Assembly (NCBI GenBank): GCA_963722255.1
Contig: CAVRJO010000001.1
Coordinates: 800,001 to 864,000, forward strand
Source: Candidatus Babeliales bacterium
GTDB taxonomy: Bacteria; Babelota; Babeliae; Babelales; JANWKD01
DNA length: 64,000 nt
Direction: 5' to 3'
The notes under the pieces were generated by a model that ran no database searches, was not told the DNA's origin, and saw nothing but the letters and a program-made list of their open reading frames with translations. The translations under genes and the position numbers were made by a program. Positions 6,991-62,598 of this stretch are shown here, piece after piece (positions within the stretch are counted from its first letter, which is position 1; every line of letters begins with the position of its first letter).

Positions 6991-7473
6991 ATGAAAAGAA
7001 TAGTAACCGTTGTAGGAATCTTTATGAGTTTTATAGCAGCTTCTCATGCTATGGAAGAAGGAACAGGAAACTCTTTAACCGCATCTACCGATTGGGAAAT
7101 AGTTGGACAAAAAAATCAACCGTTACCGGAAATCTTTGAGCAAATCCCTCCAACCATTATTGTCAGTCATGGTCTTACAACTGATACAGCACCACAAAAT
7201 GAAGGTGAGAATGGACCCCAGAAAGAAGAAAAAGCCGATCATCAACAATTAATTCAAGAACCACAAATAGCTGATATTCATAGTGAACTATCTGTACCCA
7301 AATCTCACTATCGCATTCCTCCTTTAAAAGACCTTTATCAAAGCATCTTAGCAACTATCACCGGTAATCCATGGTATCAGAATAGGACAGCTCGCTATTC
7401 ATTGCTTGCCGGAACTGGAACCATTACCATTACCATTGGTGCTTTGGGATATTTTTATCTTTATAAGAAGTAA
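6991..7473 (+). CDS. Secreted hypothetical protein with C-terminal tail anchor
   Basis: Signal MKRIV...SHA|MEE; disordered acidic middle; C-terminal hydrophobic helix followed by KK-stop. Confidence 0.7.
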   Translation: MKRIVTVVGIFMSFIAASHAMEEGTGNSLTASTDWEIVGQKNQPLPEIFEQIPPTIIVSHGLTTDTAPQNEGENGPQKEEKADHQQLIQEPQIADIHSELSVPKSHYRIPPLKDLYQSILATITGNPWYQNRTARYSLLAGTGTITITIGALGYFYLYKK

Positions 7474-18991: not shown

Positions 18992-19823
18992 ATGAAGAAA
19001 TTCATGTATCTGAGCTTAACTGGATTAATGGTATTGAGCCCAACAACCAACTGCATGGAACAGATCATAACAGCAGATAAAGAAGCAGAAATACCCTCAA
19101 AAGGGGAATTAATTAATCAATTCATGGAAGCAGCTCTTGCAGTATCGACTCTCAACCGTTATGCTGTTGCGGAATCTGCAGAATTTAGTTCCATGCAAGA
19201 AATATATGGAACCATTAAAAAAGTTAACAACGGAAATAAAGAACAAACCCAAGCAGAGCTGTTAGATGGATATCACAGCGGAGATGAAGATTATTACAAA
19301 AAGGAAATCGAAAATGCCGACAAAACGTTGCAAAAAATTAGATCCATTGATGCAATTTTAGCCTTCAGAACCCAACCAAAATTGGCAGATAATCAAAAAA
19401 AATTTGAAAAATTAACACGACAACAAAATGAATTAAATGAGTCTTATAAAGATATATTGAACAAAAGAGCTAATAACAAAGCAGAATTAGCTAAAATAGC
19501 AACAGAAAAGGAAGTTCTTGAACAAGCCCGCACAATTCTTTACTAATAACAGAGAGCAAGAAAATTCATTACTGCACGCACGCAAAGAAAAAATAACCGC
19601 AGACATAGCAGCAGTTGATGAACGTATTGCAAAACACAAAAATGCAACTTACGCTTTACTCGATGCACCAGTAAGCGAAAGCGTTAAGGAAGCTGGAATT
19701 GAAGATAGTATAGAGATTGAAAAAAGTTTAGCTGAAGAAAAAATGCAATTACAGGAAAAACTCAATAAAGTTGAAGCTGTAATTGAAAACTTAAAACCTA
19801 AACAAGGTTGGTTTGGTTGGTAA
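18992..19823 (+). pseudogene. Secreted coiled-coil protein split by an apparent +1 frameshift near 19538-19546
   Basis: ORF 18992..19546 (signal ...TNC|MEQ, GGGAG RBS) overlaps 19518..19823. Both are coiled-coil-like, and removing one T at CTTTAC joins them into 276 aa. Confidence 0.55.
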
Positions 19824-19878: not shown

Positions 19879-19942
19879 ATAGCAACCTTCATTAAGATAA
19901 GCATATTTTTTGCAATGATAAAAATGATACTAATCGAAAGAA

Positions 19943-20116
19943 TGTCATCCAGAGAATTTTCTCGAAGTGAAATTCGTGGGATCCAGTAATTAAAATTGAA
20001 AATCCTAATAAATTTTTCAAGACTTTAAAACATCAAAAAAATTAATTTTTTCATAGGTTTTTATTATTTAACTGGATCCCACGTCACTACACTATGTTTC
20101 GTTCCTCTGGATGACA
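19943..20116. repeat. REP/RPE-like palindromic element (copy 2, opposite orientation)
   Basis: TGTCATCCAGAG ... CTCTGGATGACA ends; inner CGTGGGATCCAGT/ACTGGATCCCACG stem; reverse complement of the right arm matches the left arm of copy 1. Confidence 0.8.
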
Positions 20117-20246
20117 GTTTTGCCTTTATTGTTTTTTTTAAATTCAAATTGCGCGGTTTAGCGCGGGGCGCTATACAAAACCATACAAAAATATGTTGCA
20201 TCTGATAAAATGCCTATTTTTTTTCACTCCATAAACTTATTATACT

Positions 20247-21256
20247 TTAAATATTCATTCCTTTAGGTTTTGGATGATCTTTTTTATGATGCTGTTTCAA
20301 AGCTCCCTGTGAACCGTTTGATTTTCCGCATAATTTACAGATATATGCTTTAGAATGATCTACTTTAGTATGCCGACGCAAAAGTGATGCATCCCGTGCG
20401 TTATAACCACATAAACGACAAATTAATTTATTCCCTTGAGCCGGATGTTCAGCCTTATAATGCTGCTGCAAAGCTCCCTTAGAACCTATCGATTTTCCGC
20501 ATAATAGACAGGTATATGCTTTCACATGATCTGCTTTGCTATGCTGTTGCAAAAACGAAAGATTGAATGCTTCATAACCACATAAACCACAAATTAATCT
20601 ATTCCCTTGGGCAGAATGTTCAGCCCTATAATGCTGCAGTGTAGCTCCCTGGGAATGAAGAACTTTGTTACATGTTCTACAAGTAAATTGCTTATGGAGA
20701 GCTTTTATATGTAATTCAAACGTATACTTAAATGGAGAAACATATTCACAGCGATCGCAACTATATAATGTACCAATACTAGTTTTTCTCTTTTTTTTAC
20801 ACCTTCTTGATCATCACAATAAAGTTGTAAGTCCTTTGTCGCTTCAAAAATATCTGTACTGTTTTCTCCAGGCTCTACTAAATTATCAACTTCATCAAAA
20901 ACGGATATTTTTCTTTTAACCCTTAATCTAATATCATTGGATTCAAAATCAGCAGCAAAAGCATCAGATTTAGGATCATACAGCAGATAATTTATTGCAT
21001 CATTAGACATTTCAGCGTCAATACCAATTCCAGTTAGTTCGCAACATTCTTGGATTGACTGCGGCCAATAAGAAACATCATCCTTACCTGGTCCAAGCAA
21101 AAGCTCAGCCACTTCATGAATTGACATCTTGCCCAAATCATTATTAATCTGAAATCTTTCTGAAGAACTGGTATCTAAAAAACTTTTTGGAACATTTTCC
21201 ATACATACAATTCCATAGTTGATTAAAAATAGCACTATTACCTTATATTTATTCAT
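20247..21256 (-). pseudogene. Secreted C2H2 zinc-finger protein (6 fingers) interrupted by a -1 frameshift at an A8 tract (20791-20798)
   Basis: Adding one A gives VKKKRKTSIGTLYSCDRCEY..., open through to ORF 20247..20552 and colinear with paralogue 21418..22758; 336 aa when restored. Confidence 0.85.
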
Positions 21257-21417
21257 AATAAATCCTAAATAATGTACAAAAAACAAAGCTTTATGAAGAA
21301 AATTTAATAAATAAACTTCAAAGTATTAAAGAATATAATTCAAAATCATATGCAATTTATCATGACTTCTCAATCTTAATGCATAAGTTGCTTAAAAAAA
21401 TAACATATAATCTAAAC

Positions 21418-22758
21418 TTATGTTCTTGGATGATCTTTTTTGTGATGCTGCCGCAAAGCTCCATTAGAACCGTTCGGCTTTCCGCATAATTGACAAGCAT
21501 ATAATTTCGTATGGTCTGCTTTATTATGTCGTCTCAACATTGCCGGATTGGCTGCTTTATAACCGCATATACTACAAATTGACTTATTCCCTTGAGTTGG
21601 ATGTTCAGCCTTATAGTGTTGCTTCAAAGCACCTTCGGAATAACATATTTTATTGCATACCTTACAAGTGTATAATTTATGAGGAGCTTTTATATGTTCA
21701 TTAAAAGCTCCTTTGGTTTTAGTAACATATTCACACCTATCACAACTATATAATGCATTTGAACCAACATTAATATTTTTTTTTATAAGAGAAGCATGTT
21801 CTTGAGGAGTCACAGCTTTTCTTTTCTTTTCTATATAATCTTGTTTTAATGCAAGTTTACCATCATGCCATCGTAATTCTTTAGCAATCAAAGCATTTTT
21901 TGCTCTACGTTCAGTGGATTCATACTCTATATTACAAGCATCATGCCCACACTCAGGCTTATCAATCCATATATCATCACGAGTTATCATTTCTGTGTTT
22001 AACCCATATTCTTCAATAGTAGATTTTTTAAAATGGCTCGTTAAATGCTGCAATAAAGCCTCAAAAGAATAGCATTTTTTACTACAAACCCTACAATCAT
22101 ATACATTTTTATAATTTGCGTTATCATTTTTTTTCGATTCTGTAGTCGCAGTTTTAACGTAACCAAGTATAGCAGTGTCTTTTGGAATAAAATGTTTATT
22201 CTTATAATGATTTATAAGAAACTTTTCAGAACTACATACTTTCTTGCATAGGTTACATTCATATGGTTTAAGATGCGTATACTTATGACGCTTGAAAAAC
22301 CCTTCAAAAACAGTGTAATATTCGCAATGTTCACAGGGATAAAAGGAACCTGCACCGACACCACTATTTTGTACAAGATCATGAGTAGCACGTTCATCAA
22401 TAATTTTTCTTTTCTTTTTTACACTTTCATGATCATCAGTATAATGCTGTAAATTAAGTGCAGATTCAGAACTATCAATTTTATCAAAATCAGGTGCCTC
22501 TCTTGTAGCTCCGTGCCTGAGTTCAAGAGATGCAAAGCCGGTAGCAAAAATAGTTTTAGGCTCACTTGTATCAAACGGAGTTGTTACTCCTACATCAATT
22601 CCACAAAATAACTCATAGGATTCTTGAATTGATTGTTGCCATGAATCTTCATCGACAAATTCATCGAGAAAAGATTCCATACAGAGCATTTCACACGAAA
22701 AAAATAAAAGCAGTAAAAATCGTTTTTTGATTATCCCAACGGAACCTTTGCATTCCAT
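21418..22758 (-). CDS. Secreted eukaryote-like C2H2 zinc-finger protein (7 fingers) with NLS-like motifs
   Basis: Seven CxxC-x12-H-x3/4-H units; KKKRK and KKRK; acidic N-terminal region; signal ...MLC|MES; exact start uncertain. Confidence 0.85.
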   Translation of the reverse strand: MECKGSVGIIKKRFLLLLFFSCEMLCMESFLDEFVDEDSWQQSIQESYELFCGIDVGVTTPFDTSEPKTIFATGFASLELRHGATREAPDFDKIDSSESALNLQHYTDDHESVKKKRKIIDERATHDLVQNSGVGAGSFYPCEHCEYYTVFEGFFKRHKYTHLKPYECNLCKKVCSSEKFLINHYKNKHFIPKDTAILGYVKTATTESKKNDNANYKNVYDCRVCSKKCYSFEALLQHLTSHFKKSTIEEYGLNTEMITRDDIWIDKPECGHDACNIEYESTERRAKNALIAKELRWHDGKLALKQDYIEKKRKAVTPQEHASLIKKNINVGSNALYSCDRCEYVTKTKGAFNEHIKAPHKLYTCKVCNKICYSEGALKQHYKAEHPTQGNKSICSICGYKAANPAMLRRHNKADHTKLYACQLCGKPNGSNGALRQHHKKDHPRT

Positions 22759-30942: not shown

Positions 30943-32460
30943 ATGAGAAGACTATGGTTATTATTTTTTATTTTAATTCTCTATAACGTTTCAATAACGG
31001 CAATTGATTTTTTCGATTTTTCCGATCGATCTGACAGAACAACATCCTGCACTGAGGTTTTCGGATTTTGTCCAATAACCTGTCTTCCTAATAGATCTTT
31101 TATGTTTACACGGCCAATATATAGAGACATTGGTGTTCAAAAGCCAATATGGCAAGAATTTGTATTCAATCCATGCGAAACTTTTGCAGTTCAAGTTGCT
31201 CCAATCTATCAAAAATCATTTGGATCACGAAGTTTAGCAAAATATTTTTTATTTAATGAGCAATATGATTTGCTCATTAAAGGTGATAATGCCATTAATA
31301 ATAATCCAAATACACGTGACGTTAGAGCAGAGTGGATCGGTCTTCCGAGTAATTATATCGGAAGCTTTTCTGTTCATCCACATCAAAAACAGTTCGGAAT
31401 TTGGATTGAAGGAAAAATGCCTTTAAGCTTTTGCTTTGATCATGAATTTTTTGAATTTTTATGGGTAGGCTTGGCCGTACCTTATCAGATTGTAGAAAAC
31501 AATATTAGACCAACGCAAACACCACCCATAAATCCTGCGCCTTCTTTTCCACGTGATGCTCTTGAAGCACTTTCCAATCCAGCACTTCTTTTTGGCAAAT
31601 TTGGTGGCAAAAAAAAAGTGAGTGGATTTGCTGAAATTGATTTTAAATTAGGTTACAACCTTCTCAATCAAGATTATTTTCAAATAGGTCTTTACTCTAT
31701 GCTTGTTGTCCCTTTACACAAAGGCGTAAAGCAGCATTTTGTTTTTGAACCATTTATAGGCAACGATCGTCATTTTGGTTATGGTAATGGCGTTACCTTT
31801 AAATTACCACTTCTTTGCGATGCAGAATGCCAACTATTTTCATTTTTTGCCTATTTTGAAAACATATACTTTTTTCGGCATGTTGAACGTAGATGTTTTG
31901 ATTTGATTAGTAATCCATGGAGCCGCTATATGCTCCTCAACAGTAAAGAAGGTGCTGTAAATGTTCCCGCTATCAATATTTTTACAAGAAAGGTTCGAGC
32001 ACGCTGCTATAATATGCTTGACCTCTTAACAGGATTTGATTGGGAAGTTGGCAATGTTCAAGTAGAGGTTGCTTATGGATTGTGGGCTCGTGGAAGAGAG
32101 CAATTAAAGCTTGCTGATTGCTTCCCTGCTGATTACGCCTTTGCAGGCGTAGGCTTTTTGCCTAACTCAAAAATACCTGCAAGTGCAAGCCTTAGTACAA
32201 TCTCAGAACAGGCACCAAATGACGTCAATGCCACAACGGGCCAGCAACAGTTTGTTCCCATAACCGTACAAGATTTAGATCTCAATTCCGGTGCAGCTCG
32301 AGGAGCATTATGCCATCGCGGGCACTTTACCGTTAGCTATCTTTATCAAGGTGATATAATTGAAGGTTTTATGTCTTTGGGAGGCTATATTGAAATTTCT
32401 CAATATAATTCAGCGCTTTCAAATTGGGGAATTTGGGGAAAGATAGGACTTGCACTATAA
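30943..32460 (+). CDS. Exported protein, probable outer-membrane beta-barrel
   Basis: Signal peptide; aromatic-rich alternating beta-strands; terminal strand WGIWGKIGLAL. Confidence 0.55.
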   Translation: MRRLWLLFFILILYNVSITAIDFFDFSDRSDRTTSCTEVFGFCPITCLPNRSFMFTRPIYRDIGVQKPIWQEFVFNPCETFAVQVAPIYQKSFGSRSLAKYFLFNEQYDLLIKGDNAINNNPNTRDVRAEWIGLPSNYIGSFSVHPHQKQFGIWIEGKMPLSFCFDHEFFEFLWVGLAVPYQIVENNIRPTQTPPINPAPSFPRDALEALSNPALLFGKFGGKKKVSGFAEIDFKLGYNLLNQDYFQIGLYSMLVVPLHKGVKQHFVFEPFIGNDRHFGYGNGVTFKLPLLCDAECQLFSFFAYFENIYFFRHVERRCFDLISNPWSRYMLLNSKEGAVNVPAINIFTRKVRARCYNMLDLLTGFDWEVGNVQVEVAYGLWARGREQLKLADCFPADYAFAGVGFLPNSKIPASASLSTISEQAPNDVNATTGQQQFVPITVQDLDLNSGAARGALCHRGHFTVSYLYQGDIIEGFMSLGGYIEISQYNSALSNWGIWGKIGLAL

Positions 32461-32464
32461 AGAA

Positions 32465-32922
32465 CTTTTCTAAGCATTATTATTGTTAGTTATTTTTTAA
32501 ATTTATTCGTTTGATTCAACATTTTGGGTTGTAGTTTCAATTTCATTAATCACAAAAGAAACTGATTCTTCACCATCAACCAACTTTAATGTCGCAGGTG
32601 TTCCGACTATTACAGGTTGAGCAACCAAAGCTTCATTTTCACCTTGAACTACATAAAAATTAAATTCTACTACCAAAATGCCTTCTTCATTTTTAGCCAT
32701 TTTAGTAATAACTACTTTGAAAGTTTTACCATTAAGTTCAAATGTTATTTGTGAAAGTGATTCAGATAACACAACAGAGTGAGATGCAGTTTGATTGCCA
32801 ATTGTATGTATTGTTTCAAAAGCAATATCTGCTTTTGCGATTGATGAAGCCAATAAAATAATTGATAATAAGAGCTTTTTCATAGGTTCTCCCTAAAGTA
32901 ATAAAAATAATGCTTAGAAAAG
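32465..32922. repeat. 27-bp inverted repeats (17 bp perfect) enclosing gene 32503..32883
   Basis: CTTTTCTAAGCATTATT at 32465-32481 and AATAATGCTTAGAAAAG at 32906-32922; 24/27 identity when extended inwards. Confidence 0.85.
32503..32883 (-). CDS. Small exported beta-rich protein
   Basis: GGGAG RBS; signal MKKLLL...AKA|DIA. Confidence 0.8.
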   Translation of the reverse strand: MKKLLLSIILLASSIAKADIAFETIHTIGNQTASHSVVLSESLSQITFELNGKTFKVVITKMAKNEEGILVVEFNFYVVQGENEALVAQPVIVGTPATLKLVDGEESVSFVINEIETTTQNVESNE

Positions 32923-32959
32923 CTCATGAAAAAATTAATTGTTACATTAATTTAGCTTC

Positions 32960-32987
32960 ACTATACTGCTTTGCAGCTTTTTGTCAA
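32960..32987 (-). promoter_or_regulatory. Sigma70-type promoter for 32503..32883
   Basis: Minus strand TTGACA-N16-TATAGT. Confidence 0.6.
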
Positions 32988-33130
32988 TTTAATCTTTTTT
33001 AGCAAGCATAAAAAATAGTGAACCGTTTTCTAAAATTTTTCAATTATTTTTAAAAAATAATTTATATAGATAATTTTATTTTTTTCTATTAAACTTTTCT
33101 TGTATTTTACACCCTCTAAAAATCTAATGT

Positions 33131-34306: not shown

Positions 34307-34370
34307 TTTACTCATATTGAATTAAGTATTCTACAATTAAATACAAGTATTTAACAAAAAGGAGAAGTTC

Positions 34371-35795: not shown

Positions 35796-35803
35796 AAAAA
35801 GCG

Positions 35804-52818: not shown

Positions 52819-54072
52819 GTGAAAATTACCAATGTAAAAGCACGTGAAATTTTTGATTCTCGAGGTATGCCAACTCTTGAGTGCCAAATTTTTCTTGACC
52901 ATGATCATTACGTTTTAGCATCAGTCCCTTCAGGAATGTCAAGGGGTATTCATGAAGCAGTGGAACTACGCGATGGAGGATCACGATTATTTGGTAAAGG
53001 TGTTTTAAAAGCAAGTCAGATTATAGAAACGGTTTTTGCGCCGCAACTTATTGGCACATCTCCAGATCTTTTAGTTATCGATACTTTTATGATTGAGGCG
53101 GATGGAACGGTAAATAAAGCAAAGTATGGTGCAAATAGCATGCTTGCTGTAAGTATGGCTGTTGCAAAGGCACAAGCATTGAGTGAGCATATGGAGCTTT
53201 ATGAATGTATAGCGCATCTTTATGGTGCACAAACGGTAATGCTCCCGTATCCGCTCTTTAATGTAATCAATGGTGGCATTCACGCAGATAATAATCTCTT
53301 TTTTCAAGAATTTATGATTTTGCCTATTGGTGGATCAAATTTTCGAGAGTCGCTTGAATTGGGGGCGCTATTTTTTTATGAACTAAAAGTCTTATTAAAA
53401 AAAACAAACAAACCAATTGTATATGGCGATGAAGGTGGAATTGCATCTTCATTTGAATCAGAATATGAAGCACTCGATATGATAACCGAGGTAATAGCGC
53501 GAATTGGCGATGGCAATCTATTTCGTATAGCTCTTGATGTTGCAGCATCCGAATTTTATAATGTTACAACGCACTGTTATGATTTACATGATGAATTCTT
53601 AACATCAGAAGAACTAGTCGCTTTGTATGCTAAACTTATTCAAACATATCCAATTTTCTCAATTGAAGATGGATTAGCGCAAGATGATTGGCAAGGATGG
53701 ATGCATATGAAGAGCGTTTTGGGTGACACTATTCAGCTTGTTGGTGATGATCTTTTTGCGACTTCTGCTCAAAGAATTAAACATGGCGTTATGGTTGATG
53801 CCGCTAATGCTGTCATTATTAAACCCAATCAGGTGGGAACGATTACTGAAACATTGCAAACTATTCAATTTTGTTTCGAACAGGGTTTAAATACTATCAT
53901 CTCACATCGATCCGGAGAAACAGAAGATACTTTTATTGCTGATTTAGCCGTAGGAACAAGTGCAGGTCAAATAAAAGCCGGTGGTCTTTCTCGTTCAGAG
54001 CGGCTTGCAAAATATAATCGTTTATTACGCATTGAAGATACGTTGTTATCAAGTATGTTGCTCGATGTTTAA
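52819..54072 (+). CDS. eno: Enolase
   Basis: AREIFDSRG, VPSG.S, NGG.HA, QEFM, GDEGG, DVAASEF, SIEDG, VGDDL, SHRSGETED, RSERLAKYN. Confidence 0.96.
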   Translation: MKITNVKAREIFDSRGMPTLECQIFLDHDHYVLASVPSGMSRGIHEAVELRDGGSRLFGKGVLKASQIIETVFAPQLIGTSPDLLVIDTFMIEADGTVNKAKYGANSMLAVSMAVAKAQALSEHMELYECIAHLYGAQTVMLPYPLFNVINGGIHADNNLFFQEFMILPIGGSNFRESLELGALFFYELKVLLKKTNKPIVYGDEGGIASSFESEYEALDMITEVIARIGDGNLFRIALDVAASEFYNVTTHCYDLHDEFLTSEELVALYAKLIQTYPIFSIEDGLAQDDWQGWMHMKSVLGDTIQLVGDDLFATSAQRIKHGVMVDAANAVIIKPNQVGTITETLQTIQFCFEQGLNTIISHRSGETEDTFIADLAVGTSAGQIKAGGLSRSERLAKYNRLLRIEDTLLSSMLLDV

Positions 54073-56445
54073 GGGAGCTTCATGCTCTGATAAAGGATTT
54101 TCTTGTCCTCGTATCAAATCTTCAAGTTGCCGTATTTTATCACGTTCTTCGCTATGAATCTTGCCAGGGATTGGAACTTCAGGTCTTTCTGCAATATAGT
54201 CATCAATAACATCATGCGCAAAGTTAGGGTCAGGCTTGAAGAACCAACGTGTAATTGGATCACGTAAATCTTCAAAATTTGAAGACTCTTGAAGATTATT
54301 TTCAGCATAGCACAATTTGCTTTCTGTATAAGGATCATAACCACCACCCAGTCGAGGTTTAATGATTTTGGGACAAATAAAAATCATTAAGTTTGTTTTT
54401 ATTTTCACCTTGTTGCGACGCTTGAAGAACCAACCAAATAAAGGAATCTGACTCAAAAATGGTGTATCGTTTTCAATAGTTTGATCACTAATTTTAACCA
54501 GTCCTCCTAAAGCAAGCACCTCACCATCACCTACATTGGCATTAGTTTGCACCAATCGTGTTGCGCGATTGTTTGCGCTACTTAAAAATTCGTTGACGGT
54601 AATGTTGATTTGAAGATTAATATTTTTTGCACCTTCGCTGATGGTAGGTAAAATATCAATCGCAGTTGCAGCAGTAACATATTCATTTTTTACGGTAATG
54701 GATCCGCCATCACTATTTGCTCCACCAGGTAAAAAACGCTGTTGAGCAAGAGAAATTGTTGCTTGCTTGTTGTCCATAGTTGTAATAAACGGTTGTGTTA
54801 ATATGGTAGTATTTGCGTACTTATCTAAAATTTGTAAAATATTCCAAATTCCGCTTCCATTTGGGTCATTAAAAGAAATTATTAGTGAACCAGGTGTTGA
54901 TTGATTTGCAAAGTTGGCCGTACCATCTAGCTGCAAAAGATTTGCCATCAATGCATTTGCAGGAAATTGATTAACAGTTTGACCAAGTTCATTGGTAATT
55001 CCAGCGGCTGTAATAATTGGGGTTGTAAGATTTGCCGTTTGAAAATTAATGTTATCTGAGACGCTTGTGTTAAAACCACTTTTGTTACGCATTTGCGTTC
55101 CAACGATTTGGTTTTTTTGTGACGTAAGATCAACAACTAAAACTTCTATTGCTACCTGTGGTTGAGGCGTATCAAGTTCTTTTATTAATTTTTTTATACG
55201 TATCCAATCTTCTTTACGTGCAGCAACGAGCAAACGGTTGCCTCCTTGTTGTACGCCTTCTGATTGTGCTGCCTCCGGTTGTCCCTCTACAGCCGTAGGA
55301 GCAATTGTTGCAGCAATGCTTGTTTTTTCAGCTTCAACAATAACATCTTGAAAATATCTACGAGGGCCGGCAGAGACTTGCCCTTGTGATTGAGCTGTGG
55401 TGTCTTGTTTGTTAACTAATTGTTGCAATATGGGAGCAAACTCTTCTGCATTTAAATATTGTAGATCATATAAATGTAGTATTGATTTTCCTGAATCAAG
55501 AGGATGATCGATATATTTTACAATGAATTCTTTAACAATATGAATAGACCGTGTTGTTCCCATAATTACAATGGTGTTTGTGCGATCTAGCGCAAGAACC
55601 TTGGTGTTCGGTGGAAAATAGGTGCTTGATTTTATGGGTGCTTCGCGTGCAACACCCGGAGTAACAGGTACTTGTGCTGTTGCAAGAAGCTTTTTGAATA
55701 GCTCTTCGATAAAAGTTGCTTGCACATGAAATAGAGGAATTACTTGAATATCGTCAGGAATCCCTTCAAGATCAAGTTGTCGAATTATCGTCATTGCAGC
55801 ACGTATGATATTTGATTTATCAATAAGGATCAATGCATTTGTTTTAGCATCAGTTTTAATGACCGCAGTAGGTGAAAGCATTCCTGTTGGTGCTTTTAAA
55901 ATTTGATCTAAAGGACTATTAGGATCGGTAACTTTTAAATTAGAAAGATAAAATACTGCTTGAATGACTTGTCCAGTTTCCGGCAAATCTTCTAAAGGAG
56001 GATTTATATAGAGTGGAAGTGGTTCACGTTGAATGTTTTGATCGATTTTTAAAAGAGTCAATTGATCATTTTTAAGTTCCCAACTATAACCAATAAAATC
56101 AAGAATTCTACCTAGTTCTTGCCATGCTTGATCGAGTGTAACTTTGTAGGGAAGTGAAAATTTAACTTTTGCTGAAAGCGCTTGGGACCCCTGAGGTAAA
56201 AGCACATTGACTTTCTTTTCTGCTGCGAGTTCATTAATGATGTCTATGAGAGCAACATCTTGATAGTTAAATGAATATTTCTTTTCAAAACTTTTTGATT
56301 CAGGTTGCTCTTGAGTAACTGATTCTAAGGTAGGTTTTATATTGAGTTTTTCCTCAAGTAGTTGTTTTATTGATTCTTCAGGTTGCGCATCAACCTTGAC
56401 AAAGGTATTCAATAAAAGGAGCATTAAAACTATTTTTAAAACCAT
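54049..56445 (-). CDS. gspD: Type II secretion secretin (GspD-like), copy 2
   Basis: N-domain repeats (TNALILI, TNTIVIMG, NRLLVA), LDTPQPQVAIEVLVV, LALGGL, PFLSQIPLFGWFFK, NLMIFICPKII. Confidence 0.88.
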   Translation of the reverse strand: MVLKIVLMLLLLNTFVKVDAQPEESIKQLLEEKLNIKPTLESVTQEQPESKSFEKKYSFNYQDVALIDIINELAAEKKVNVLLPQGSQALSAKVKFSLPYKVTLDQAWQELGRILDFIGYSWELKNDQLTLLKIDQNIQREPLPLYINPPLEDLPETGQVIQAVFYLSNLKVTDPNSPLDQILKAPTGMLSPTAVIKTDAKTNALILIDKSNIIRAAMTIIRQLDLEGIPDDIQVIPLFHVQATFIEELFKKLLATAQVPVTPGVAREAPIKSSTYFPPNTKVLALDRTNTIVIMGTTRSIHIVKEFIVKYIDHPLDSGKSILHLYDLQYLNAEEFAPILQQLVNKQDTTAQSQGQVSAGPRRYFQDVIVEAEKTSIAATIAPTAVEGQPEAAQSEGVQQGGNRLLVAARKEDWIRIKKLIKELDTPQPQVAIEVLVVDLTSQKNQIVGTQMRNKSGFNTSVSDNINFQTANLTTPIITAAGITNELGQTVNQFPANALMANLLQLDGTANFANQSTPGSLIISFNDPNGSGIWNILQILDKYANTTILTQPFITTMDNKQATISLAQQRFLPGGANSDGGSITVKNEYVTAATAIDILPTISEGAKNINLQINITVNEFLSSANNRATRLVQTNANVGDGEVLALGGLVKISDQTIENDTPFLSQIPLFGWFFKRRNKVKIKTNLMIFICPKIIKPRLGGGYDPYTESKLCYAENNLQESSNFEDLRDPITRWFFKPDPNFAHDVIDDYIAERPEVPIPGKIHSEERDKIRQLEDLIRGQENPLSEHEAPLNIEQHT

Positions 56446-56454
56446 GGTTATTTT

Positions 56455-57021
56455 TTACTCCGATTTCTGTAATTCTTGCTTTGGTTCTAGCGTAGCAATC
56501 GTAATTTTTACGTTAATAGCTTGAGGTTTTTTTGCTTTTTCTATTTCAAGTTCTTTTGTATAAATTCTTTCTTCTTGTTCAATAGCATAGAGCAATTCAC
56601 TTAATTTTTTTGTATTCAAGTTAGCAAGATTCGCGTAAAGTGTCCATTCGGTATATCCATCAAGCACGTCTTTAGGTAATGTTTCCGGTTCTTGAGCCTT
56701 GTTTGAAGCGATGCCCAACCTTTCAAGAAGATTTTCAAAATATTGTGCAATTTTAAAACTTTTATCTTTTGCTAAAATTGTATTTACTTCTACTTGTTGC
56801 TTTTTGACACGTTCATAGCGTTCAAGCATATTTTGAACATCTTTTCTTTTTTTATTTATAGCACTAATTTTTGATTTAAGCTGTCCTGCAGAGCGATAGT
56901 AGGTAACAATAAGAAGCCCTAAAAGTAGTATAATGCAACTTAAAGCGATCAGAGCATATTTTTTAAAATCTTTTGCATCAAGAGTATCAAGATAATTTTT
57001 AATGCTGAGGATGAAGTTCAT
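56455..57021 (-). CDS. GspM/PilO-like inner-membrane platform protein
   Basis: Single N-terminal TM, coiled coil, ferredoxin-like LSELLYAIEQ segment; operon position. Confidence 0.6.
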   Translation of the reverse strand: MNFILSIKNYLDTLDAKDFKKYALIALSCIILLLGLLIVTYYRSAGQLKSKISAINKKRKDVQNMLERYERVKKQQVEVNTILAKDKSFKIAQYFENLLERLGIASNKAQEPETLPKDVLDGYTEWTLYANLANLNTKKLSELLYAIEQEERIYTKELEIEKAKKPQAINVKITIATLEPKQELQKSE

Positions 57022-58652
57022 TGTTCATCTCCATTTTTTTTCAATGGTAACGTAATGATAAATTTTGGAGCTTGCAGACTTGCAATAGAACTAAACAAAT
57101 TTGATCGTTTAAGTTCTTTTTCTAATATTTTTAAAGCATCAAAATCTCGAACTTCACCATCGAGTATAATATTTCTTGGTTCCTCAGTGATGCTTAATTT
57201 TTTTAGATTAAGCCCGGTGGCTTCGCGATCAATTGCTGCAGTAAGATCTTGCAAGTATTTCAAAAATGAAAAACGCGTTTGGCTTGAGAATGCAAACCAA
57301 ATTGTTTCTTCTTGTTTCACTTTTTCTTCAGATTTTTTTAATGCTTCAGTCAAGGATTTTGCGGTCGTTAATCCACGGTGTTTAAGCGTGGAAACAATTG
57401 CGATTTCATAATTTTTTAAGGCTTTTTTGAGCGTTCCCAGTTGCCAATAGGTATAAAAGAGAATACCTGCAAAGGTGAGCACAATAAGCGAAAGCGCAGT
57501 AAAAAGTTGTCGATAAAAAAGCCCTGAATCAACAATTGAAAATTCATGTCTTCTTAAATTAAAATTTTCAACAGTTGGGGTAATAAGCGCTGTACTTAAA
57601 CTTAAGATGGAAGACTGAGGGATTCTGTTTCCACTTTTTAAGGTTATGAAGTCAGTTTTTAATAGTTCATTGCTATCAAAAAGGTTACAGGTGATTCCTA
57701 ATTGTTGTGTAAAAAATTGTGGTAGGTTAGCAATATCAGAACCTTGGCCTAAAAGAAGAATCTCTTTTATCTTATTTTCAGTTTTAGTTTGCGCCGTAAA
57801 AGAATCAAGAGTGAATTTAATTTCATTTAAGAACGATGATAATGCTTCTTTGATTGCATCATTAAAGGGTTGATCATTATTGTGATTAAAGCCAAACCTA
57901 ATAATTTTTTCTAAGGCATCATTTGAATTTATACTATTTTTTTGCGCTACTTGTTTAGCCCATTGCAACAATCCTTTTGCAAGTGTTCGTACAAGAGTTA
58001 ATTTTCCATCTACAATGAAGGCGATGCGTGTTACATTAAAACCAATATCAATGAGCGCATAGTTTCCTGTCGCGTCTTTATATTTTGGAATGCATTTATA
58101 AAGTCCATAAAGATCAAAGAGATCGACCGTAATGGTTGTAGGACTTACACCTGCTTGTTCAAAATAGCTTATATGTTCTGCAATATGTTCTTTTTTAACT
58201 GCTGCAGCTAATATAACCGATGATTGTTGTGCAGGATTGCTTTGAGTGATAATAAAATCGATAATGGTTTGGTTAATGGGAAAAGGTAAAAAGGGTTCAA
58301 TTTCGTAATTGATAACCATGCTAATTTTTTCAGGATCTGAAAAAGGAAGTGTTAATTCTTTGAATATAGCAATTGAGCTTGAGATGGATGTTCGTAATGC
58401 ATCATAGCGATCAACTTTGGTTAAAATAGTAGCAATGGTTTTAGAAACGCGTTCAGCATAAGGAGCGGTTGCTTCTAATTCTAAAGGCTGATCGATGAAC
58501 TTTTCGAGCGTAACTTTTTTCCCATGTAATAAGAGTTGTGTAACATGAATAGTTGTTTTACCTATATCAAAGCCTAAAATTCGCTGTTTAACCAGATAAT
58601 ATGAACCTACTTTTTTGGGGATTAAAACATCAGTAATTAAGCGACCAATCAT
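57018..58652 (-). CDS. GspL / PilM-PilN-like fused protein
   Basis: Actin-like LGFDIG and LIDIG motifs, NFNLR, TM, then PilN-like ILDGEV domain. Confidence 0.75.
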   Translation of the reverse strand: MIGRLITDVLIPKKVGSYYLVKQRILGFDIGKTTIHVTQLLLHGKKVTLEKFIDQPLELEATAPYAERVSKTIATILTKVDRYDALRTSISSSIAIFKELTLPFSDPEKISMVINYEIEPFLPFPINQTIIDFIITQSNPAQQSSVILAAAVKKEHIAEHISYFEQAGVSPTTITVDLFDLYGLYKCIPKYKDATGNYALIDIGFNVTRIAFIVDGKLTLVRTLAKGLLQWAKQVAQKNSINSNDALEKIIRFGFNHNNDQPFNDAIKEALSSFLNEIKFTLDSFTAQTKTENKIKEILLLGQGSDIANLPQFFTQQLGITCNLFDSNELLKTDFITLKSGNRIPQSSILSLSTALITPTVENFNLRRHEFSIVDSGLFYRQLFTALSLIVLTFAGILFYTYWQLGTLKKALKNYEIAIVSTLKHRGLTTAKSLTEALKKSEEKVKQEETIWFAFSSQTRFSFLKYLQDLTAAIDREATGLNLKKLSITEEPRNIILDGEVRDFDALKILEKELKRSNLFSSIASLQAPKFIITLPLKKNGDEQ

Positions 58653-61474
58653 CCGACAACCTCCTTAGTTTCCGGTAAAAAATCTGTGATCGACTGTTTC
58701 CTTTTGAGCGTTTTCTGATTTTTAAGCTTTGCTTGTGCGATTGAAGCTATTTTTGTTTCATCAGGAGAACCATTTTGTTTATTAGTAGTACAAAGAGGTA
58801 TACATTCTGTAGTAGCTCGCTTTCTAATTGGTGCATATTCACTTTCAGGACATTGGCTGATTGGTTGGCATGGACGAGGATTTTCAGGTTCACAAAGTTG
58901 TGTTACATGATCATCCGGCCCTGGAGGACAACAGCGACATCCTCCAATACAATCGGCGTAATTATTTGGACACACAAGAGGAGGACATATTGCTGCCATC
59001 TGCGCAGCGATAGAATCTTCTTCATATTCCTGGCCCGTACGGCAGTTGTATGCAAGTGGCATTGAGCAAGCGCTTACATTATTGATATAGTTTTCAACGA
59101 TTTCTGTATTTTCGCATGGCGTATCTTTGAAGAACCAACGATGAATAGGATCTCGCTGTTCAGAACAATCCTTCATAGAGCACATAACGTCTTCAGCTTC
59201 CGAAGCTTTCTTTTCAGTGTATGCGCTCATCCCACCTTGAGGACGTGGTTGAACTATTTGTGGAGAAATAAAAATAATTAAATTGTCTTTTAATTTATTT
59301 TTATACTTATTTTTAAAGAACCAACCGAATAATGGTATGCGTTGCAAAAGTGGCACACCATTCTGAAGCTCGTTAATATTGTCTTGTATAAGTCCACCAA
59401 TTGCTAAAATCTCATTGTTGGCCATATTTGCATTAGTTTTAACCGTTTTTGTATCTTTAGTAGGGTTTATTGCATCGGCATTAGTGAAGGTATCAAGACT
59501 TATTTCAATAGCAAGATTAATAATGCCGCTGCTGTTTATTTGCGGTGTGATAGCAACCGAAAGATTAGCCGATACGTCGCCAAGAGTATTCTGAACAGGT
59601 CCTGCACCGGTTACTGTTCCCGTAGCAACACGACGGGTTTCACCAACAGAAACTTGCGCTGTGTATTTATTGGTGGTTGTTAAAAATGGATGCGATACAA
59701 CGCTGGTATACGCATAGGTTTCAAGCGCTTGAAAGAGCGCCCAAACGCCACCAACTAAGCTGCTGCCTATTGAAATTAATGTTGTCCCGGGGTTAAATCC
59801 TGTTGCTAAACTAACCAGATTGCCCATGAGGCCCCCCGCAGGATCAGTAACGATCGAAGTCTGAAGTCCAGGAACGCCTAAGCCAGAGGTTTGAAATGCA
59901 ATATTATCAGTAATTCCAAGTGTGTCTAAACGCTTATTGCGAATTTGTGTTCCAAGAGATTTAATTTTGTTAACAGCAACATTAACAATGAGTACTTCAA
60001 TCGCAACCTGCGGTTGTTTTACGTCCAATTTTTTTATGATTTCTTCTACTTTTAAGTAATCATCTTTTTCTGCTTTGATTAACAGTTTATTTCCCGAAGG
60101 TTCAGCGATAAAGGTCATTGGGCGCAAAAATTTATCTCCATCAAGAACTCCACCATATTTAGCTGCAACACTGCCTGGTGCAAAATTTGTAACTTTGCTT
60201 AAAATTGCAGCCATATTTTCAGCATTCGCATATTGCAATTTATAAACATAAAGAGGCGAATAAGGCTGCTTGAGGGAAGTGTCAACATATTCAAGAATGA
60301 AATTTTCAACTTTTTCTATACCTTCTCTAGTTCCCAAAATGATTAAGGCATTTCCACGAGGCTCAGCAAATAATCGAGTATCTTCAGGAAAATAGATGGA
60401 TGTTGATTGCTTTTTTTGACCAAAGAGCCTTGTTGCTATGGTAGATTTTTCTTCGGTAGATACGAGATTATCATAGAGTGCTACGACATCTTGGGCGTTT
60501 GCATGTTTTAGTTTTAAAACAGACATACCTTCTGGCATGCTAACGCTATCAAGTTCTGAAATGATTGACATGAGGGAACGAATATTGGCTGCTTTATCGG
60601 TAAAAATTATCGCATTTAAGGCATTGAAAGTTTGAACAATTGCTGTTTTGCTTTTAAGATCTTGAACGAGATTGGCAAGGTTTGCAGCAGGACCATTTTC
60701 AACAAAATAGACGTAGCGAATTTTAGTATCATTGTTTGGCAATAATTTCCAATTTATTCCAACAAATGCAGGCAAAGCTGCTTGATTTGCAATATCTAAG
60801 GGAACTACATTGTATGAGTCGGGAAAATTATTGGTAAAATGAGTAGGTACGAGCGTTAATCCAAAAAGATCAAGAAAGTTTAAGAAAAGATCCCAAACAT
60901 TTCGTTTGCTCATGGGCTCATGTGTTCTATACGTTATTAGGTTTCCTGCGACTTTTCCTGCCACAGGTGGATTGATTGCATCACCGGTAAGAAATTTAAC
61001 TTTAAAAATAGATTCGACCCACCCAAGAAGATTGAGAAGCTCTGTTTTATCAAGATTAACCGATATAGTTTTTTCTGAAGGATTAAATGCTTCAAAAGGC
61101 ATAAGAGATGAAGGGTTTCTTAACAAATGCTCTTCAGTATCTTCTCGCGATTTAAATGATGAAGCAAGATCTTGTTGTGAGATTGAAATGTTTTTGGGAA
61201 TGTCCATTTCATTTGGGACTTTATCTATTTTTTTGGGTTGAGCAGTTTGTGGTAATGGATCTTCAAAGCCTTTATTGTTTCGCTGTAATCGTTCTTGCTT
61301 TGAAACTCTTCTTTTTTTAACGCGACCATTATCTTTTGTGGAACCTGATGAAGATAACGTAGGTTCTGATGCCATAGTGTTGTTCATCGTAGGCAAACAG
61401 AGAAAAATAAGCACCAAGAATGTATTGCCAAGAGCTTTATAATAATTTCTAACGTTCATGTATCTTTTCCACAT
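58649..61474 (-). CDS. gspD: Type II secretion secretin (GspD-like), copy 1, with Cys-rich C-terminal extension
   Basis: LKHANAQ, LQYANAE, LDVKQPQVAIEVLIV, LAIGGLI, VPLLQRIPLFGWFFK, NLIIFISPQIV. Confidence 0.88.
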   Translation of the reverse strand: MWKRYMNVRNYYKALGNTFLVLIFLCLPTMNNTMASEPTLSSSGSTKDNGRVKKRRVSKQERLQRNNKGFEDPLPQTAQPKKIDKVPNEMDIPKNISISQQDLASSFKSREDTEEHLLRNPSSLMPFEAFNPSEKTISVNLDKTELLNLLGWVESIFKVKFLTGDAINPPVAGKVAGNLITYRTHEPMSKRNVWDLFLNFLDLFGLTLVPTHFTNNFPDSYNVVPLDIANQAALPAFVGINWKLLPNNDTKIRYVYFVENGPAANLANLVQDLKSKTAIVQTFNALNAIIFTDKAANIRSLMSIISELDSVSMPEGMSVLKLKHANAQDVVALYDNLVSTEEKSTIATRLFGQKKQSTSIYFPEDTRLFAEPRGNALIILGTREGIEKVENFILEYVDTSLKQPYSPLYVYKLQYANAENMAAILSKVTNFAPGSVAAKYGGVLDGDKFLRPMTFIAEPSGNKLLIKAEKDDYLKVEEIIKKLDVKQPQVAIEVLIVNVAVNKIKSLGTQIRNKRLDTLGITDNIAFQTSGLGVPGLQTSIVTDPAGGLMGNLVSLATGFNPGTTLISIGSSLVGGVWALFQALETYAYTSVVSHPFLTTTNKYTAQVSVGETRRVATGTVTGAGPVQNTLGDVSANLSVAITPQINSSGIINLAIEISLDTFTNADAINPTKDTKTVKTNANMANNEILAIGGLIQDNINELQNGVPLLQRIPLFGWFFKNKYKNKLKDNLIIFISPQIVQPRPQGGMSAYTEKKASEAEDVMCSMKDCSEQRDPIHRWFFKDTPCENTEIVENYINNVSACSMPLAYNCRTGQEYEEDSIAAQMAAICPPLVCPNNYADCIGGCRCCPPGPDDHVTQLCEPENPRPCQPISQCPESEYAPIRKRATTECIPLCTTNKQNGSPDETKIASIAQAKLKNQKTLKRKQSITDFLPETKEVVG

Positions 61475-62598
61475 TATGCTTGATGGTTAAGGAGCATATT
61501 TAAGTTTCTCCTGTCTCGATTTCCATAATTTACCATCTCACGTTTTTGTTGCATTTTCAACTGATCTAATGTTGGCGCAAACTGTTTTTGTTTGCGCAAG
61601 AGGTCAATTTTTTCTGCCTCTATTTCTTGTAATGATTTTTCTTTACCCAATATAGTTTGCGTTTCAACCGTTGGTTCTTCCAACTGTTGCAGTGTATACG
61701 TTATGTTTATTTCTTGTTGATTACGCAGAAGGGTTACTTCGATGGTACTTCCAAGATCCATTGAAATTATTTTTTGATAAATTTCAAAACGCGAATCAGT
61801 TGTTGTAGCGGGTATTGCATTTATTGATTCGATAATATCGCCTGTTTGCAATCCCAGAGCAATTCCAATTGTTTTTGGTTGTAACGTACCAATTCGGCAT
61901 CCAATGCTTTGTCCTTTTTTGTAAACAGTGAATAAATTGAGCGTCTCAATAAGTTCAGCTAAGTTAGGAATCGACTGAATAAATGCACGAGGATCAACAA
62001 GATAATCAAATGGCCCTTTCTTTTGAACAACAGAAGACCAATTTGCTCGTGATTGCATTTGCTGATCGATTTCAGCATCATACTGATTTACATAAAGGGT
62101 CTCTTGTTGGCCATTTGAGCGTACTAAAATAATTTTATTGGTGAAAATTCTTATGAGTTGTGCATCATCGATTCTATCACCTACGATATAGTTTTTCGTG
62201 ATTGAATTCTTACTGTCTTGAATAATGGCAATATTTTCAGATTCATCTGAAAGAGTAATTATTCCCTTAAGAACAATCTGTAAAGGTTCTAAAAACTTAG
62301 GAGGCAATGCAAGAGGGACTTTTACCGGTTGAGGAGTTGGTGGTTCAGGCATAGTAATTTTTTGAACCTCTTTTTCTTCCTCTTTTAATTCCTGTGGTTT
62401 GTATGTTTCAAAAAGATCATTGATATAAATTTTACTTAAATCAATTTTTGAAACAGCTTTTTTCGGTAATTTTATTTCCATTTTTGATGTTAAAGGTACT
62501 GGGGTAGGAACTTTTTGTTGTGAAATAAACATGAACCCTACAATCGTTATGAAAACAATAAAAAGTATATCATTAACGAGCCAAAAGGGATGTTTCAT
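61474..62598 (-). CDS. gspC: GspC-like protein with PDZ domain
   Basis: N-terminal TM, Pro-rich linker, LKGII..AII..Y.VGD.I..I...KIIL..NG..ETL, PDZ GLQTGDIIESIN. Confidence 0.8.
   Translation of the reverse strand: MKHPFWLVNDILFIVFITIVGFMFISQQKVPTPVPLTSKMEIKLPKKAVSKIDLSKIYINDLFETYKPQELKEEEKEVQKITMPEPPTPQPVKVPLALPPKFLEPLQIVLKGIITLSDESENIAIIQDSKNSITKNYIVGDRIDDAQLIRIFTNKIILVRSNGQQETLYVNQYDAEIDQQMQSRANWSSVVQKKGPFDYLVDPRAFIQSIPNLAELIETLNLFTVYKKGQSIGCRIGTLQPKTIGIALGLQTGDIIESINAIPATTTDSRFEIYQKIISMDLGSTIEVTLLRNQQEINITYTLQQLEEPTVETQTILGKEKSLQEIEAEKIDLLRKQKQFAPTLDQLKMQQKREMVNYGNRDRRNLNMLLNHQA

Follow-up and report, generated by a model that had tools for sequence, protein, structure and literature searches.

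What are two genes for eukaryote-type C2H2 zinc-finger arrays doing on a bacterial chromosome? The genes, here called A and B, are neighbours, arranged in tandem on the minus strand of a 64,000-nucleotide stretch of DNA (the window), and they stand on a genuine bacterial chromosome, flanked by valS and housekeeping genes. The source organism is a Babeliales (Dependentiae/TM6) bacterium, the top relatives of its valS being Babeliales MAGs at no more than 65% identity, and the Babeliales are an intracellular lineage of obligate protist parasites. Our best explanation, which we hold at about even chances, is that A and B are paralogous C2H2 array proteins of eukaryotic type that the bacterium exports to act on its host. 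Since they combine an export signal with a nuclear-import-like motif in a protist-dwelling bacterium, the probable destination of the proteins is the host, perhaps its nucleus. The features on which we base this reading are collected in Table 1.

Table 1. Positions of the features of genes A and B and of related elements in the window.
Feature	Positions	Strand	Basis
Gene A, intact CDS, 446 aa	21418..22758	-	ORF, Pfam
Gene A leader, aa 1-26: basic n-region, FLLLLFFSC core, ...MLC then Met-Glu	22681..22758	-	
Gene A acidic/hydrophobic region, aa 27-113, net charge -16 over 87 aa	22420..22680	-	
Gene A KKKRK, aa 114-118	22405..22419	-	
Gene A fingers 1-3, aa 140-242	22033..22341	-	Pfam, pattern
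Gene A second basic motif KKRK, aa 311-314, within the spacer	21817..21828	-	
Gene A fingers 4-7, aa 337-443, block common to gene B	21430..21750	-	
Promoter-like site TTGAGA-17-TATGAT, 10/12, upstream of gene B	21345..21373	-	consensus match only
Gene B, 6 fingers, split as assembled	20247..21256	-	
Gene B N-part up to the A-run: leader, then acidic region	20799..21256	-	
Gene B leader, aa 1-18	21203..21256	-	
Gene B A8 run, frame-change site	20791..20798	-	
Gene B finger part: 6 fingers (20274-20765), stop codon 20247-20249	20247..20790	-	
Structured repeated intergenic element, nested inverted repeats, directly downstream of gene B	19890..20246	-	
Candidate outer-membrane export machinery: two secretins, PilM, T2SS protein C	54049..62598	-	same window

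Gene A starts 28 nt before the end of valS, overlapping its stop, and AGGA lies 4 nt ahead of its ATG. Its parts follow one another in the order leader, acidic region, KKKRK, fingers 1-3, a spacer with KKRK, and fingers 4-7. When we sampled 87-aa windows of the proteome, just 16 of 16648 were as acidic as the corresponding region of gene A, and none of the 138 leader proteins tested has so acidic a mature N-terminus. The KKKRK motif consists of the five residues of the SV40 large-T NLS core, and the DNA of the second basic motif repeats the DNA of the first (repeat D8). A single-sequence AF2 model of the protein had a mean pLDDT of 31 and was unusable.

The original prediction gave both paralogues the same architecture, namely a leader, an acidic region, the motif VKKKRK and an array of C2H2 fingers. 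Leader, acidic stretch (net charge -18 over 133 aa in gene B) and arrays of seven and six fingers are indeed found in A and B respectively, and the two acidic-region strings that it quoted, MESFLDEFVDEDSWQQSIQESYELF and SYWPQSIQECCEL, are both present, but gene B as assembled is not one open frame. Its N-part frame runs from 21256 to a stop at 20705, the finger frame is open from 20810, and the two parts are one base out of register at the A8 run, inside the KKKRK motif, where the reading is GVKKREK in the N-frame and KKKRKTS in the other. Because of this one-base change of register, VKKKRK is not encoded in any single frame of gene B. The A8 run is also the junction at which gene B lacks the fingers 1-3 and the spacer of gene A, and fingers 3-4 and 5-6 of gene B represent an internal 171-nt duplication. 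In a public read run with 7% of the sampled words, the sole contig covers 20511-20768 and ends before the A8 run. Genome-wide, a homopolymer frame-switch signature occurs at 54 of 8304 sites as against 38 of 12000 random ones, about twice the random rate, though some of the signature sites are repeated IS-like copies and the thresholds used did not pick up gene B itself. Gene B carries either a recent one-base frame change or a homopolymer assembly error. An Rfam scan of the whole window gave zero matches.

All 13 fingers read C-x2-C-x12-H-x3/4-H, within the ligand spacing of the zf-C2H2 family (C-x2-4-C-x12-H-x3-5-H). The Pfam zf-C2H2 scan (PF00096, cut-off 25.2 bits) that had been proposed as a check returned gene A with an E-value of 3.2e-13 (49.8 bits) and the finger part of gene B (frame 20247-20810) with 1.5e-14 (53.9 bits). 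The predicted count of six to seven fingers holds, except that the array of gene A consists of two blocks, of three fingers (aa 140-162, 166-189 and 220-242) and four (aa 337-360, 363-386, 393-416 and 420-443), set apart by a 94-aa spacer that contains the second basic motif. In other respects the fingers are unusual. The spacing H-x4-H occurs in 10 of the 13. Of the usual hydrophobic core, an aromatic at residue 4 and Leu at residue 10 after the second cysteine, the fingers have L or F at residue 10 in 12 of 13 cases, whereas residue 4 is T, C, A, N, S, L or I and in no finger an aromatic, which is often found at position 2 or 5 instead. The linkers measure 4 to 8 residues (His-to-Cys gaps of 4, 5 or 8), and among them we found no seven-residue linker of the TGEKP type in A or B; HLKPYEC, likened to TGEKPY in the original prediction, is present at residues 162-168 of A as the sole near match. 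At the contact positions, five fingers share the same S/G/A/Q set, with no arginine at -1, 2 or 3. Since the linkers are non-canonical, the H-x4-H spacing prevails and the contact set is uniform and free of arginine, it is uncertain whether these fingers read DNA.

The comparison of A with B over the fingers gave a dN/dS of 0.32 with a dS of 0.89, which indicates that purifying selection acted on the two copies for most of the time since they diverged; between them they keep all 52 zinc ligands. We also considered diversifying change at the DNA-contact positions and rejected it, none being detectable between A and B: these positions show no surplus of changes (7 of 16 versus 31 of 80, p 0.78), a result that fits protein or RNA binding equally well as DNA reading.

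When we searched for relatives, the closest solved sequences were CTCF, TZAP, HIC2, ZBTB7A and BCL11A (E 6e-6 to 1e-2), all eukaryotic nuclear DNA-binding factors. Against 5.8 billion clustered proteins, the gene A protein matched itself and one insect zinc-finger protein (E 2e-4), while its N-terminal module (aa 27-139) had no relatives among 1.84 billion representatives, matching itself and one low-complexity repeat protein. In a protein atlas, generic C2H2 clusters alone were recovered, with a recognition value of 1723, below the useful range. Multi-finger C2H2 proteins had been called rare in bacteria; this is borne out by the controls, PF00096 being found in 0 of 201 genomes of the order of a Rickettsiaceae MAG, but not within Dependentiae, where 62 of 261 genomes (37 of 145 genera) have it. 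The distribution in Dependentiae is patchy, with tandem expansions and, in some cases, dozens of fingers. A literature search turned up no paper that treats Dependentiae C2H2 arrays.

A case for export can be made from the leader. We assembled a strict leader set of 141 of the 1462 ORFs of the source genome at a hydrophobicity threshold of 2.2. Its logo shows L or I at -3 and A, G, S or C at -1, then Met, followed by Glu in 108 of the 141, in agreement with the -3/-1 rule, and 122 of the 141 ORFs have no further membrane span. PF00096 matches occur in nine ORFs of the source genome, all with this type of leader ending in small-Met-Glu, which about 141 ORFs share; eight belong to the strict set and gene A falls just below the threshold, at 2.18. 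The leader of gene A is the weakest of the set, with a hydrophobic core of 9 aa and Met at -3. The leader is translated, because a Shine-Dalgarno motif stands ahead of its ATG in 66 of the 141 genes, as against 4 of 141 ahead of the internal Met. The same leader is found on at least 12 of the 33 ankyrin ORFs and on both F-box ORFs (2/2) of the source genome. BTB proteins, which we believed by eye to be present there too, proved unsupported, with two sub-threshold matches only. Met-Glu is preceded by a Cys (E-M-L-C-M in A, G-I-V-C-M in B), which we likewise rejected as the sign of a lipoprotein, since there is no lipobox (L-[AS]-[GA]-C), the residue before Cys being L or V; across the leader class, Cys is just one of four small residues at -1. 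From these signal-peptide-like leaders, we infer that A and B are secreted. Two SPase I genes and two secretins are encoded in the source genome, and a candidate type II-like secretin system lies 32 kb away from A and B, while VirB4 and FHIPEP, markers of type IV and type III systems, were not found in this genome, which is 93% complete. That a cysteine-rich protein would have to cross the periplasm counts against the host-directed reading. In C. destructans, whose cell sits in the host cytoplasm, signal peptides are reported on 44% of CDS and 78% of ankyrin proteins (PMC6561590).

Unrelated C2H2 genes in other Babeliales families show the same succession of leader, acidic stretch, basic motif and C2H2 array. 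In relatives, the fingers usually follow a leader, and often also an acidic stretch and a motif of the KRKR type. We found a leader on 14 of 16 complete C2H2 ORFs and, in further samples, on 10 of 10 in genome G053 and 2 of 2 in G091. The same-genus genome G001 has a run of at least four K/R in six of its seven C2H2 ORFs, mostly KRKR-type, and in G053 a paired basic motif, recognized by eye, stands just ahead of finger 1 in 7 of 10. A run of at least four K/R occurs in just two of the seven multi-finger C2H2 proteins checked in the source genome and in 8 of the 21 ORFs of relatives, and Lys-rich runs are commonplace in the source genome, which is AT-rich (they occur in 75 of its 875 non-leader ORFs). 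TGEKP-like linkers are present in four of the relatives (G019, G039, G022 and G008). With gene A as query, no orthologue was found in G001, and downstream of valS the two genomes show no synteny.

A and B could be exported effectors that act in the host outside its nucleus, with fingers that bind cytoplasmic host RNA or proteins and a basic motif that makes mere contact with nucleic acid or membrane. We consider this unlikely, even though the leader and the comparative evidence are the same as for a nuclear role and several features of the fingers would suit it: their linkers, H-x4-H spacing and uniform contacts, their Pfam side-matches to zf-met, zf-C2H2_jaz (dsRNA-binding) and zf-Di19, and the lack of a four-residue basic run in most C2H2 paralogues of the source genome. 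The identity of KKKRK with the SV40 core points the other way, as do the basic motifs right ahead of the fingers in G001 and G053 and the nearest solved sequences, which are nuclear DNA binders. C2H2 arrays often bring their own nuclear import. A and B might, alternatively, stay with the bacterium, in its periplasm or envelope or as regulators of its own genes, and have nothing to do with the host. A basic n-region, however, would place the fingers outside the cytoplasm, away from the bacterial DNA, and we judge such a role very improbable, although a Sec leader alone delivers to the periplasm only, neither a type III nor a type IV system turned up, and single-finger C2H2 regulators (Ros/MucR) are known in bacteria. 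No match to the Ros/MucR family appeared among the Pfam families listed at E-values up to 1 for A, for the N-part of B and, within the best 25 of 30 families, for the finger part of B. Patchy distribution and tandem expansions are typical of host-interaction genes, a leader in common with ankyrin and F-box proteins argues in the same direction, and even in the genome of the same genus no orthologue was found.

The two genes might also be decaying, non-functional leftovers of eukaryote-derived DNA, gene B at least being a pseudogene. It is frame-shifted as assembled, exactly at the junction where fingers 1-3 of A are missing, and the lack of close relatives among the clustered proteins, and of any for the N-terminal module, would agree with this. 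The dN/dS value and the intact zinc ligands in 13 of 13 fingers speak against decay, gene A is intact, both genes start in bacterial fashion, with Shine-Dalgarno motifs and the lineage-specific leader, and the break in gene B is a single homopolymer event of a kind seen at other sites, which also fits an assembly error; we regard decay as a highly doubtful explanation. The preferred reading, that A and B are exported to act on the host, gains from the protist-parasite lineage and from the translated leader that ankyrin and F-box proteins also carry, and to this extent the host-directed interpretation originally proposed finds partial support; non-canonical fingers and the interruption of gene B tell against it. 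Judged from sequence, A and B are likely to be host-directed exported proteins, whereas a nucleic-acid-binding role in the nucleus falls slightly short of an even prospect. They would then be Sec-exported effectors, plausibly with a nuclear role.

Such effectors would be translated from the leader ATG, as the computational data on the Shine-Dalgarno motifs indicate. Sec would export the unfolded chain and signal peptidase I would cut after the small residue, leaving a Met-Glu N-terminus, a step that we infer from the genome-wide leader logo and the two SPase I genes. The outer membrane may be crossed, speculatively, by the type II-like secretin system or in vesicles. In the host cytoplasm, the fingers would take up zinc and importin-alpha may read KKKRK. 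Once in the nucleus, the fingers might bind nucleic acid while the acidic hydrophobic N-region recruits host factors, the most tentative of these steps. A bolder version, rather doubtful as a whole, would make A and B the Babeliales zinc-finger counterpart of TAL effectors: fast-evolving tandem families of C2H2 arrays, Sec-exported and each equipped with an NLS and an acidic activation-like region, which would enter the protist nucleus, switch chosen host genes there and gain new specificities by duplication and deletion of fingers, as between A and B. The N-terminus left by the lineage-specific cleavage signature, Met-Glu or Met-Gln, would mimic that of a fresh eukaryotic protein (NatB-type, stable under N-degron rules). 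If nuclear entry is true, the Dependentiae, a widespread and almost uncultured phylum, would possess unexplored means of rewriting gene expression in protists, built on the eukaryotes' own DNA-reading module and delivered without type III or type IV injection. About a quarter of the sampled Dependentiae genomes supply concrete candidate genes, and the small-Met-Glu leader may make it possible to compile, by sequence alone, the exported effectors of several Babeliales families.

In ligand spacing and tandem arrays, A and B are like the eukaryotic factors CTCF, TZAP/ZBTB48, HIC2, ZBTB7A and BCL11A, yet they differ from these in their low identity, in having no TGEKP linkers and no KRAB, BTB or SCAN domains, and in being bacterial genes with a leader and a Shine-Dalgarno motif. 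The bacterial regulators Ros and MucR have a C2H2-like zinc site in a single finger, are cytoplasmic and regulate bacterial genes. Their finger differs in fold and spacing from the six to seven of A and B (Ros/MucR are cited in PMC12491435). The same paper reports, in a single sentence with no analysis of architecture or leader, that eukaryotic-like proteins with zinc fingers and F-boxes are enriched in host-associated Endozoicomonadaceae (Kistimonas). That family belongs to a different phylum from the Babeliales; canonical C2H2 arrays are also found on Endozoicomonas contigs, some of which are short and could be host DNA. The TAL effectors of Xanthomonas and Ralstonia are bacterial proteins with modular DNA-reading repeats, an NLS and an acidic activation domain that reach the host nucleus. 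Unlike A and B, they have 33-35 aa RVD repeats, of which the Pfam scan found none in either protein, and depend on type III delivery, for which the source genome yielded no FHIPEP; the part order differs too, the acidic region being N-terminal in A and B.

The fungal proteins MoHTR1 and MoHTR2 of Magnaporthe oryzae are secreted C2H2 effectors that enter host nuclei, bind promoters and reprogram host transcription, as described in PMC7672089. They resemble A and B in joining a secretion signal to C2H2 zinc-finger sequence with basic residues beside it, but have a eukaryotic ER signal and a single finger, compared with a Sec-type leader and six to seven fingers in the bacterial proteins, and there is no sequence relationship. 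The signal-peptide ankyrin proteins of C. destructans come from the same phylum and follow the same export logic with a different payload domain, C2H2 arrays not being mentioned in the available text of PMC6561590, and the ankyrin proteins of the source genome bear the very leader motif of A and B. The concept of an NLS-bearing bacterial effector that acts in the host nucleus, which A and B would share by their sequence, is that of the nucleomodulins, among which the review PMC7819608 names AnkA, TRP120, LntA, SET-domain effectors and also the TAL effectors. The term C2H2 is absent from that text, and its three mentions of zinc fingers refer to host proteins or genes (RYBP, Cbu1314-bound genes) or to the MYND-binding domain of Ehrlichia TRP47. 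If A and B belong to the nucleomodulins, their C2H2 arrays would give this class a DNA-binding module that is new to it.

Two tandem C2H2 multi-finger genes are indeed present, as the original prediction held; they lie immediately 3′ of valS. When the ORFs were read, all four ligands were found intact in the 13 fingers of genes A and B, and the Pfam zf-C2H2 scan proposed with that prediction placed both genes above the cut-off (E 3.2e-13 for gene A, 1.5e-14 for gene B). Gene A, whose ATG is preceded by an AGGA and overlaps the valS stop by 28 nt, is intact; gene B is interrupted as assembled by a frame change at an A8 run.

Features of genes A and B and of related loci (plain numbers are window positions, aa are residues of the protein, and C1 and C2 are the contigs of the source genome, G000)
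Feature	Position	Strand	Remark
Gene A	21418-22758	-	intact ORF, 446 aa
Gene A leader	aa 1-26
Gene A acidic, aromatic-rich stretch	aa 27-113		net charge -16
Gene A KKKRK	aa 114-118
Gene A first three fingers	aa 140-242
Gene A spacer			94 aa, with second KKRK at aa 311-314
Gene A last four fingers	aa 337-443
Gene B start	21256	-	own AGGA and promoter-like site upstream
Gene B leader	aa 1-18
Gene B acidic stretch			net charge -18
Gene B six-finger frame	open from 20810 to stop at 20247	-
Gene B A8 run	20791-20798		N-terminal part and finger frame one base out of register
A8 run between two-frame ORFs	599-606
A11 run between two-frame ORFs	C1:5745
Leader ORF, example	6973-7473	+
Leader ORF, example	18992-19546	+
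Leader ORF, example	35860-36213	-
Leader ORF, example	46536-46895	+
Type II / type IV-pilus-like cluster	54049-62598		two secretins (798, 941 aa), PilM, T2SS protein C
Ankyrin leader protein with NLS-like basic run	C1:465420-466871
Ankyrin leader protein with NLS-like basic run	C1:888006-889541
Ankyrin leader protein with NLS-like basic run	C2:26321-27208

The assembly (1.62 Mb in two contigs, 93% complete) has as its nearest valS relatives Babeliales (Dependentiae/TM6) MAGs, at no more than 65% identity. Host contamination is no issue for genes A and B, since they sit among ordinary bacterial genes (alanine racemase, ABC transporter, PBP, DeoC, NusA and IF-2) and the G+C content is even across the window at about 0.33. 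TGEKP-linked canonical arrays were also seen on contigs deposited as Endozoicomonas, as Poribacteria and as a Promethearchaeota MAG (loci L149, L151-L153 and L156), several of which are only 3-6 kb long and may be host contamination. Within the window the sign of the GC skew reverses around 36-38 kb, where its cumulative minimum lies, and the predominant coding strand switches from minus to plus at about 28 kb; no dnaA was found among the six ORFs tested at 30943-40524, which are competence, C11 peptidase, UDG, NusA and IF-2 genes and one without a match. The 357-nt gap 3′ of gene B (19890-20246) holds nested inverted repeats that fold at -92 kcal/mol, far better than shuffles (z -5.5), and had no match in Rfam. 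It recurs at 90% identity at C1:658868-659137 and at C2:35475-35744, the latter directly 3′ of an ankyrin gene with a leader, along with about 15 partial copies; the element is MITE-like or REP-like and lies near effector genes.

Genes A and B are true paralogues. Fingers 4-7 of gene A align without gaps to fingers 1-4 of gene B at 69% nucleotide identity, and the acidic regions have in common SWQQSIQESYEL / YWPQSIQECCEL as well as the stretch running into the basic motif. The finger regions gave a dN/dS of 0.32 at a dS of 0.89, so purifying selection acted on the two genes over most of the time since they diverged. Gene B carries an internal duplication of 171 nt comprising two fingers, and its junction DNA matches gene A at two sites, one immediately ahead of KKKRK and the other immediately ahead of finger 4 (repeats D3, D4 and D8), so that gene B looks like an A-like gene that lacks fingers 1-3 and the spacer.

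This junction falls in the A-run that carries the apparent frame change, and the one public contig found for gene B ends 23 nt short of the A8 run. Two-frame ORFs at such runs could reflect either homopolymer assembly error or genuine slippage-prone genes. Genome-wide, the two-frame signature occurred at 54 of 8304 homopolymer sites versus 38 of 12000 random sites, an excess for which repeated IS-like copies account in part. Long ORFs in two frames meet at sense-strand A7-A11 runs at about 50 genome sites besides the one at 599-606; several abutting pairs are identical (131 + 143 or 118 + 179 codons) and resemble IS copies with frameshift sites. In G001, a genome of the same genus, valS too is split at a Lys-rich A-run.

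Nine ORFs in the source genome match PF00096 at E ≤0.01, and in all nine a basic N-terminus leads into a hydrophobic core, followed by a small residue, Met and then Glu (His in one); eight belong to the strict leader set, gene A being just under the hydrophobicity threshold (2.18 versus 2.2). The motif was found in 141 of 587 ORFs whose N-terminus is signal-like versus 41 of 875 others, and 122 of the 141 are without a further membrane span. These leader ORFs make up roughly 10% of called ORFs; their leaders end in a small residue, Met and Glu/Gln/Asp, the Met being residue 18-24. Their logo (L/I at -3, F/Y at -2, A/G/S/C at -1, Met, then Glu in 108/141) conforms to the -3/-1 rule for signal peptidase I, an enzyme for which the genome has two genes. 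A Shine-Dalgarno sequence precedes the leader ATG in 66/141 genes (283/719 in reference ORFs) and the internal Met in 4/141 (49/719 at random internal codons), an excess which shows the leader to be translated. The only two secretins found in the genome both lie in the window; VirB4 and FHIPEP were looked for in G000 and neither was found. Eukaryotic NatB acetylates Met-Glu, Met-Asp, Met-Gln and Met-Asn N-termini, and cleaved leader proteins may mimic a host-made N-terminus. No description of the small-Met-Glu/Gln/Asp motif was found in the literature.

At least 12 of the 33 ankyrin ORFs have the leader too, with some ten more judged so by eye, as do both F-box ORFs. C. destructans, the one relative studied in depth, is in line with this: PMC6561590 gives signal peptides for 44% of its CDS and for 78% of its ankyrin proteins, and presence in the host cytoplasm by 3 h. 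Runs of at least four K/R are, per residue, about four times commoner in leader proteins than in other signal-bearing ORFs. In three ankyrin leader proteins, basic runs (RKRK, KSKRPRAK, RKRKF) lie shortly after the cleavage site, making them further candidates for nuclear targeting. In 200-kb samples of other Dependentiae, the signature was seen in 31/96 (G001), 19/68 (G039) and 18/57 (G053) signal-like ORFs, and was near-absent in G091 (1/83).

At E ≤1e-4, PF00096 is found in 37 of 145 Dependentiae genera, or 62 of 261 genomes, of which 58 pass the cut-off, and often in large tandem clusters; a smaller Dependentiae sample gave 10/41 at E ≤1e-3, control genomes 1/14, and the order of a Rickettsiaceae MAG 0/201. 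Among 21 distinct C2H2 ORFs read from relatives' loci, four were cut by the locus end and one lacked an upstream Met. The other 16 are complete: 14 carry a hydrophobic leader, one is borderline and one is without. In the 200-kb samples a leader was present on C2H2 ORFs in 10/10 cases in G053, 2/2 in G091 and 4/6 in G001. G001 has no orthologue of gene A or B but a C2H2 cluster of its own, which indicates that such genes arise and are lost quickly. That cluster comprises six C2H2 genes (L108, G001:C1:215000-227000), mostly with a leader whose end reads FRAMEDPNPP, together with a basic run of KRKR type and acidic tails; one of the proteins has 783 aa and 9 fingers.

The original prediction went further, reading the proteins as host-reprogramming nucleomodulins with an activation domain, an NLS and a DNA-binding array. 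Acidic stretches are likewise a recurrent feature: none of the 138 leader proteins tested has a mature start as acidic as the stretch in gene A, and four of the C2H2 proteins are among the most acidic. Basic motifs ahead of the fingers are frequent, though not universal: runs of at least four K/R occur in 8/21 relatives' C2H2 ORFs, including 6/7 in G001 (mostly KRKR-type), a paired basic motif directly precedes finger 1 in 7/10 ORFs of G053 (by eye), and of seven multi-finger C2H2 proteins checked in the source genome, A and B alone show a run of at least four K/R. The fingers speak against a simple transcription-factor reading in their linkers (4, 5 or 8 residues), their H-x4-H spacing (10/13 fingers) and their contact residues, a set of S/G/A/Q being common to five fingers and arginine at -1, 2 or 3 occurring in none. 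Canonical HTGEKP linkers, present in many relatives (G019, G039, G022, G008), are absent from A and B, as is the usual aromatic core residue, and no excess change was found at contact positions between the two (7/16 versus 31/80 elsewhere). Pfam side-matches include two RNA-binding types of finger, zf-met and jaz, as well as Di19, and the solved sequences closest to the fingers belong to nuclear DNA binders (HIC2, TZAP, CTCF, Snail, ZBTB7A and BCL11A), matched only at E 6e-6 to 1e-2. Taken together, these features make it likely that the fingers bind nucleic acid, less so that they read DNA sequence. The comparative evidence gives good support to export of the proteins and to their being host-directed, and a role as putative nuclear transcription activators is plausible.

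C2H2 arrays in Dependentiae/Babeliales/TM6 are not described in the literature found, although the papers' supplements may list such domains. No description of a bacterial C2H2 nucleomodulin was found either, and "C2H2" does not occur in a nucleomodulin review (PMC7819608). The nearest functional parallel to A and B comes from fungi, namely MoHTR1 and MoHTR2, which PMC7672089 presents as secreted C2H2 nuclear effectors.
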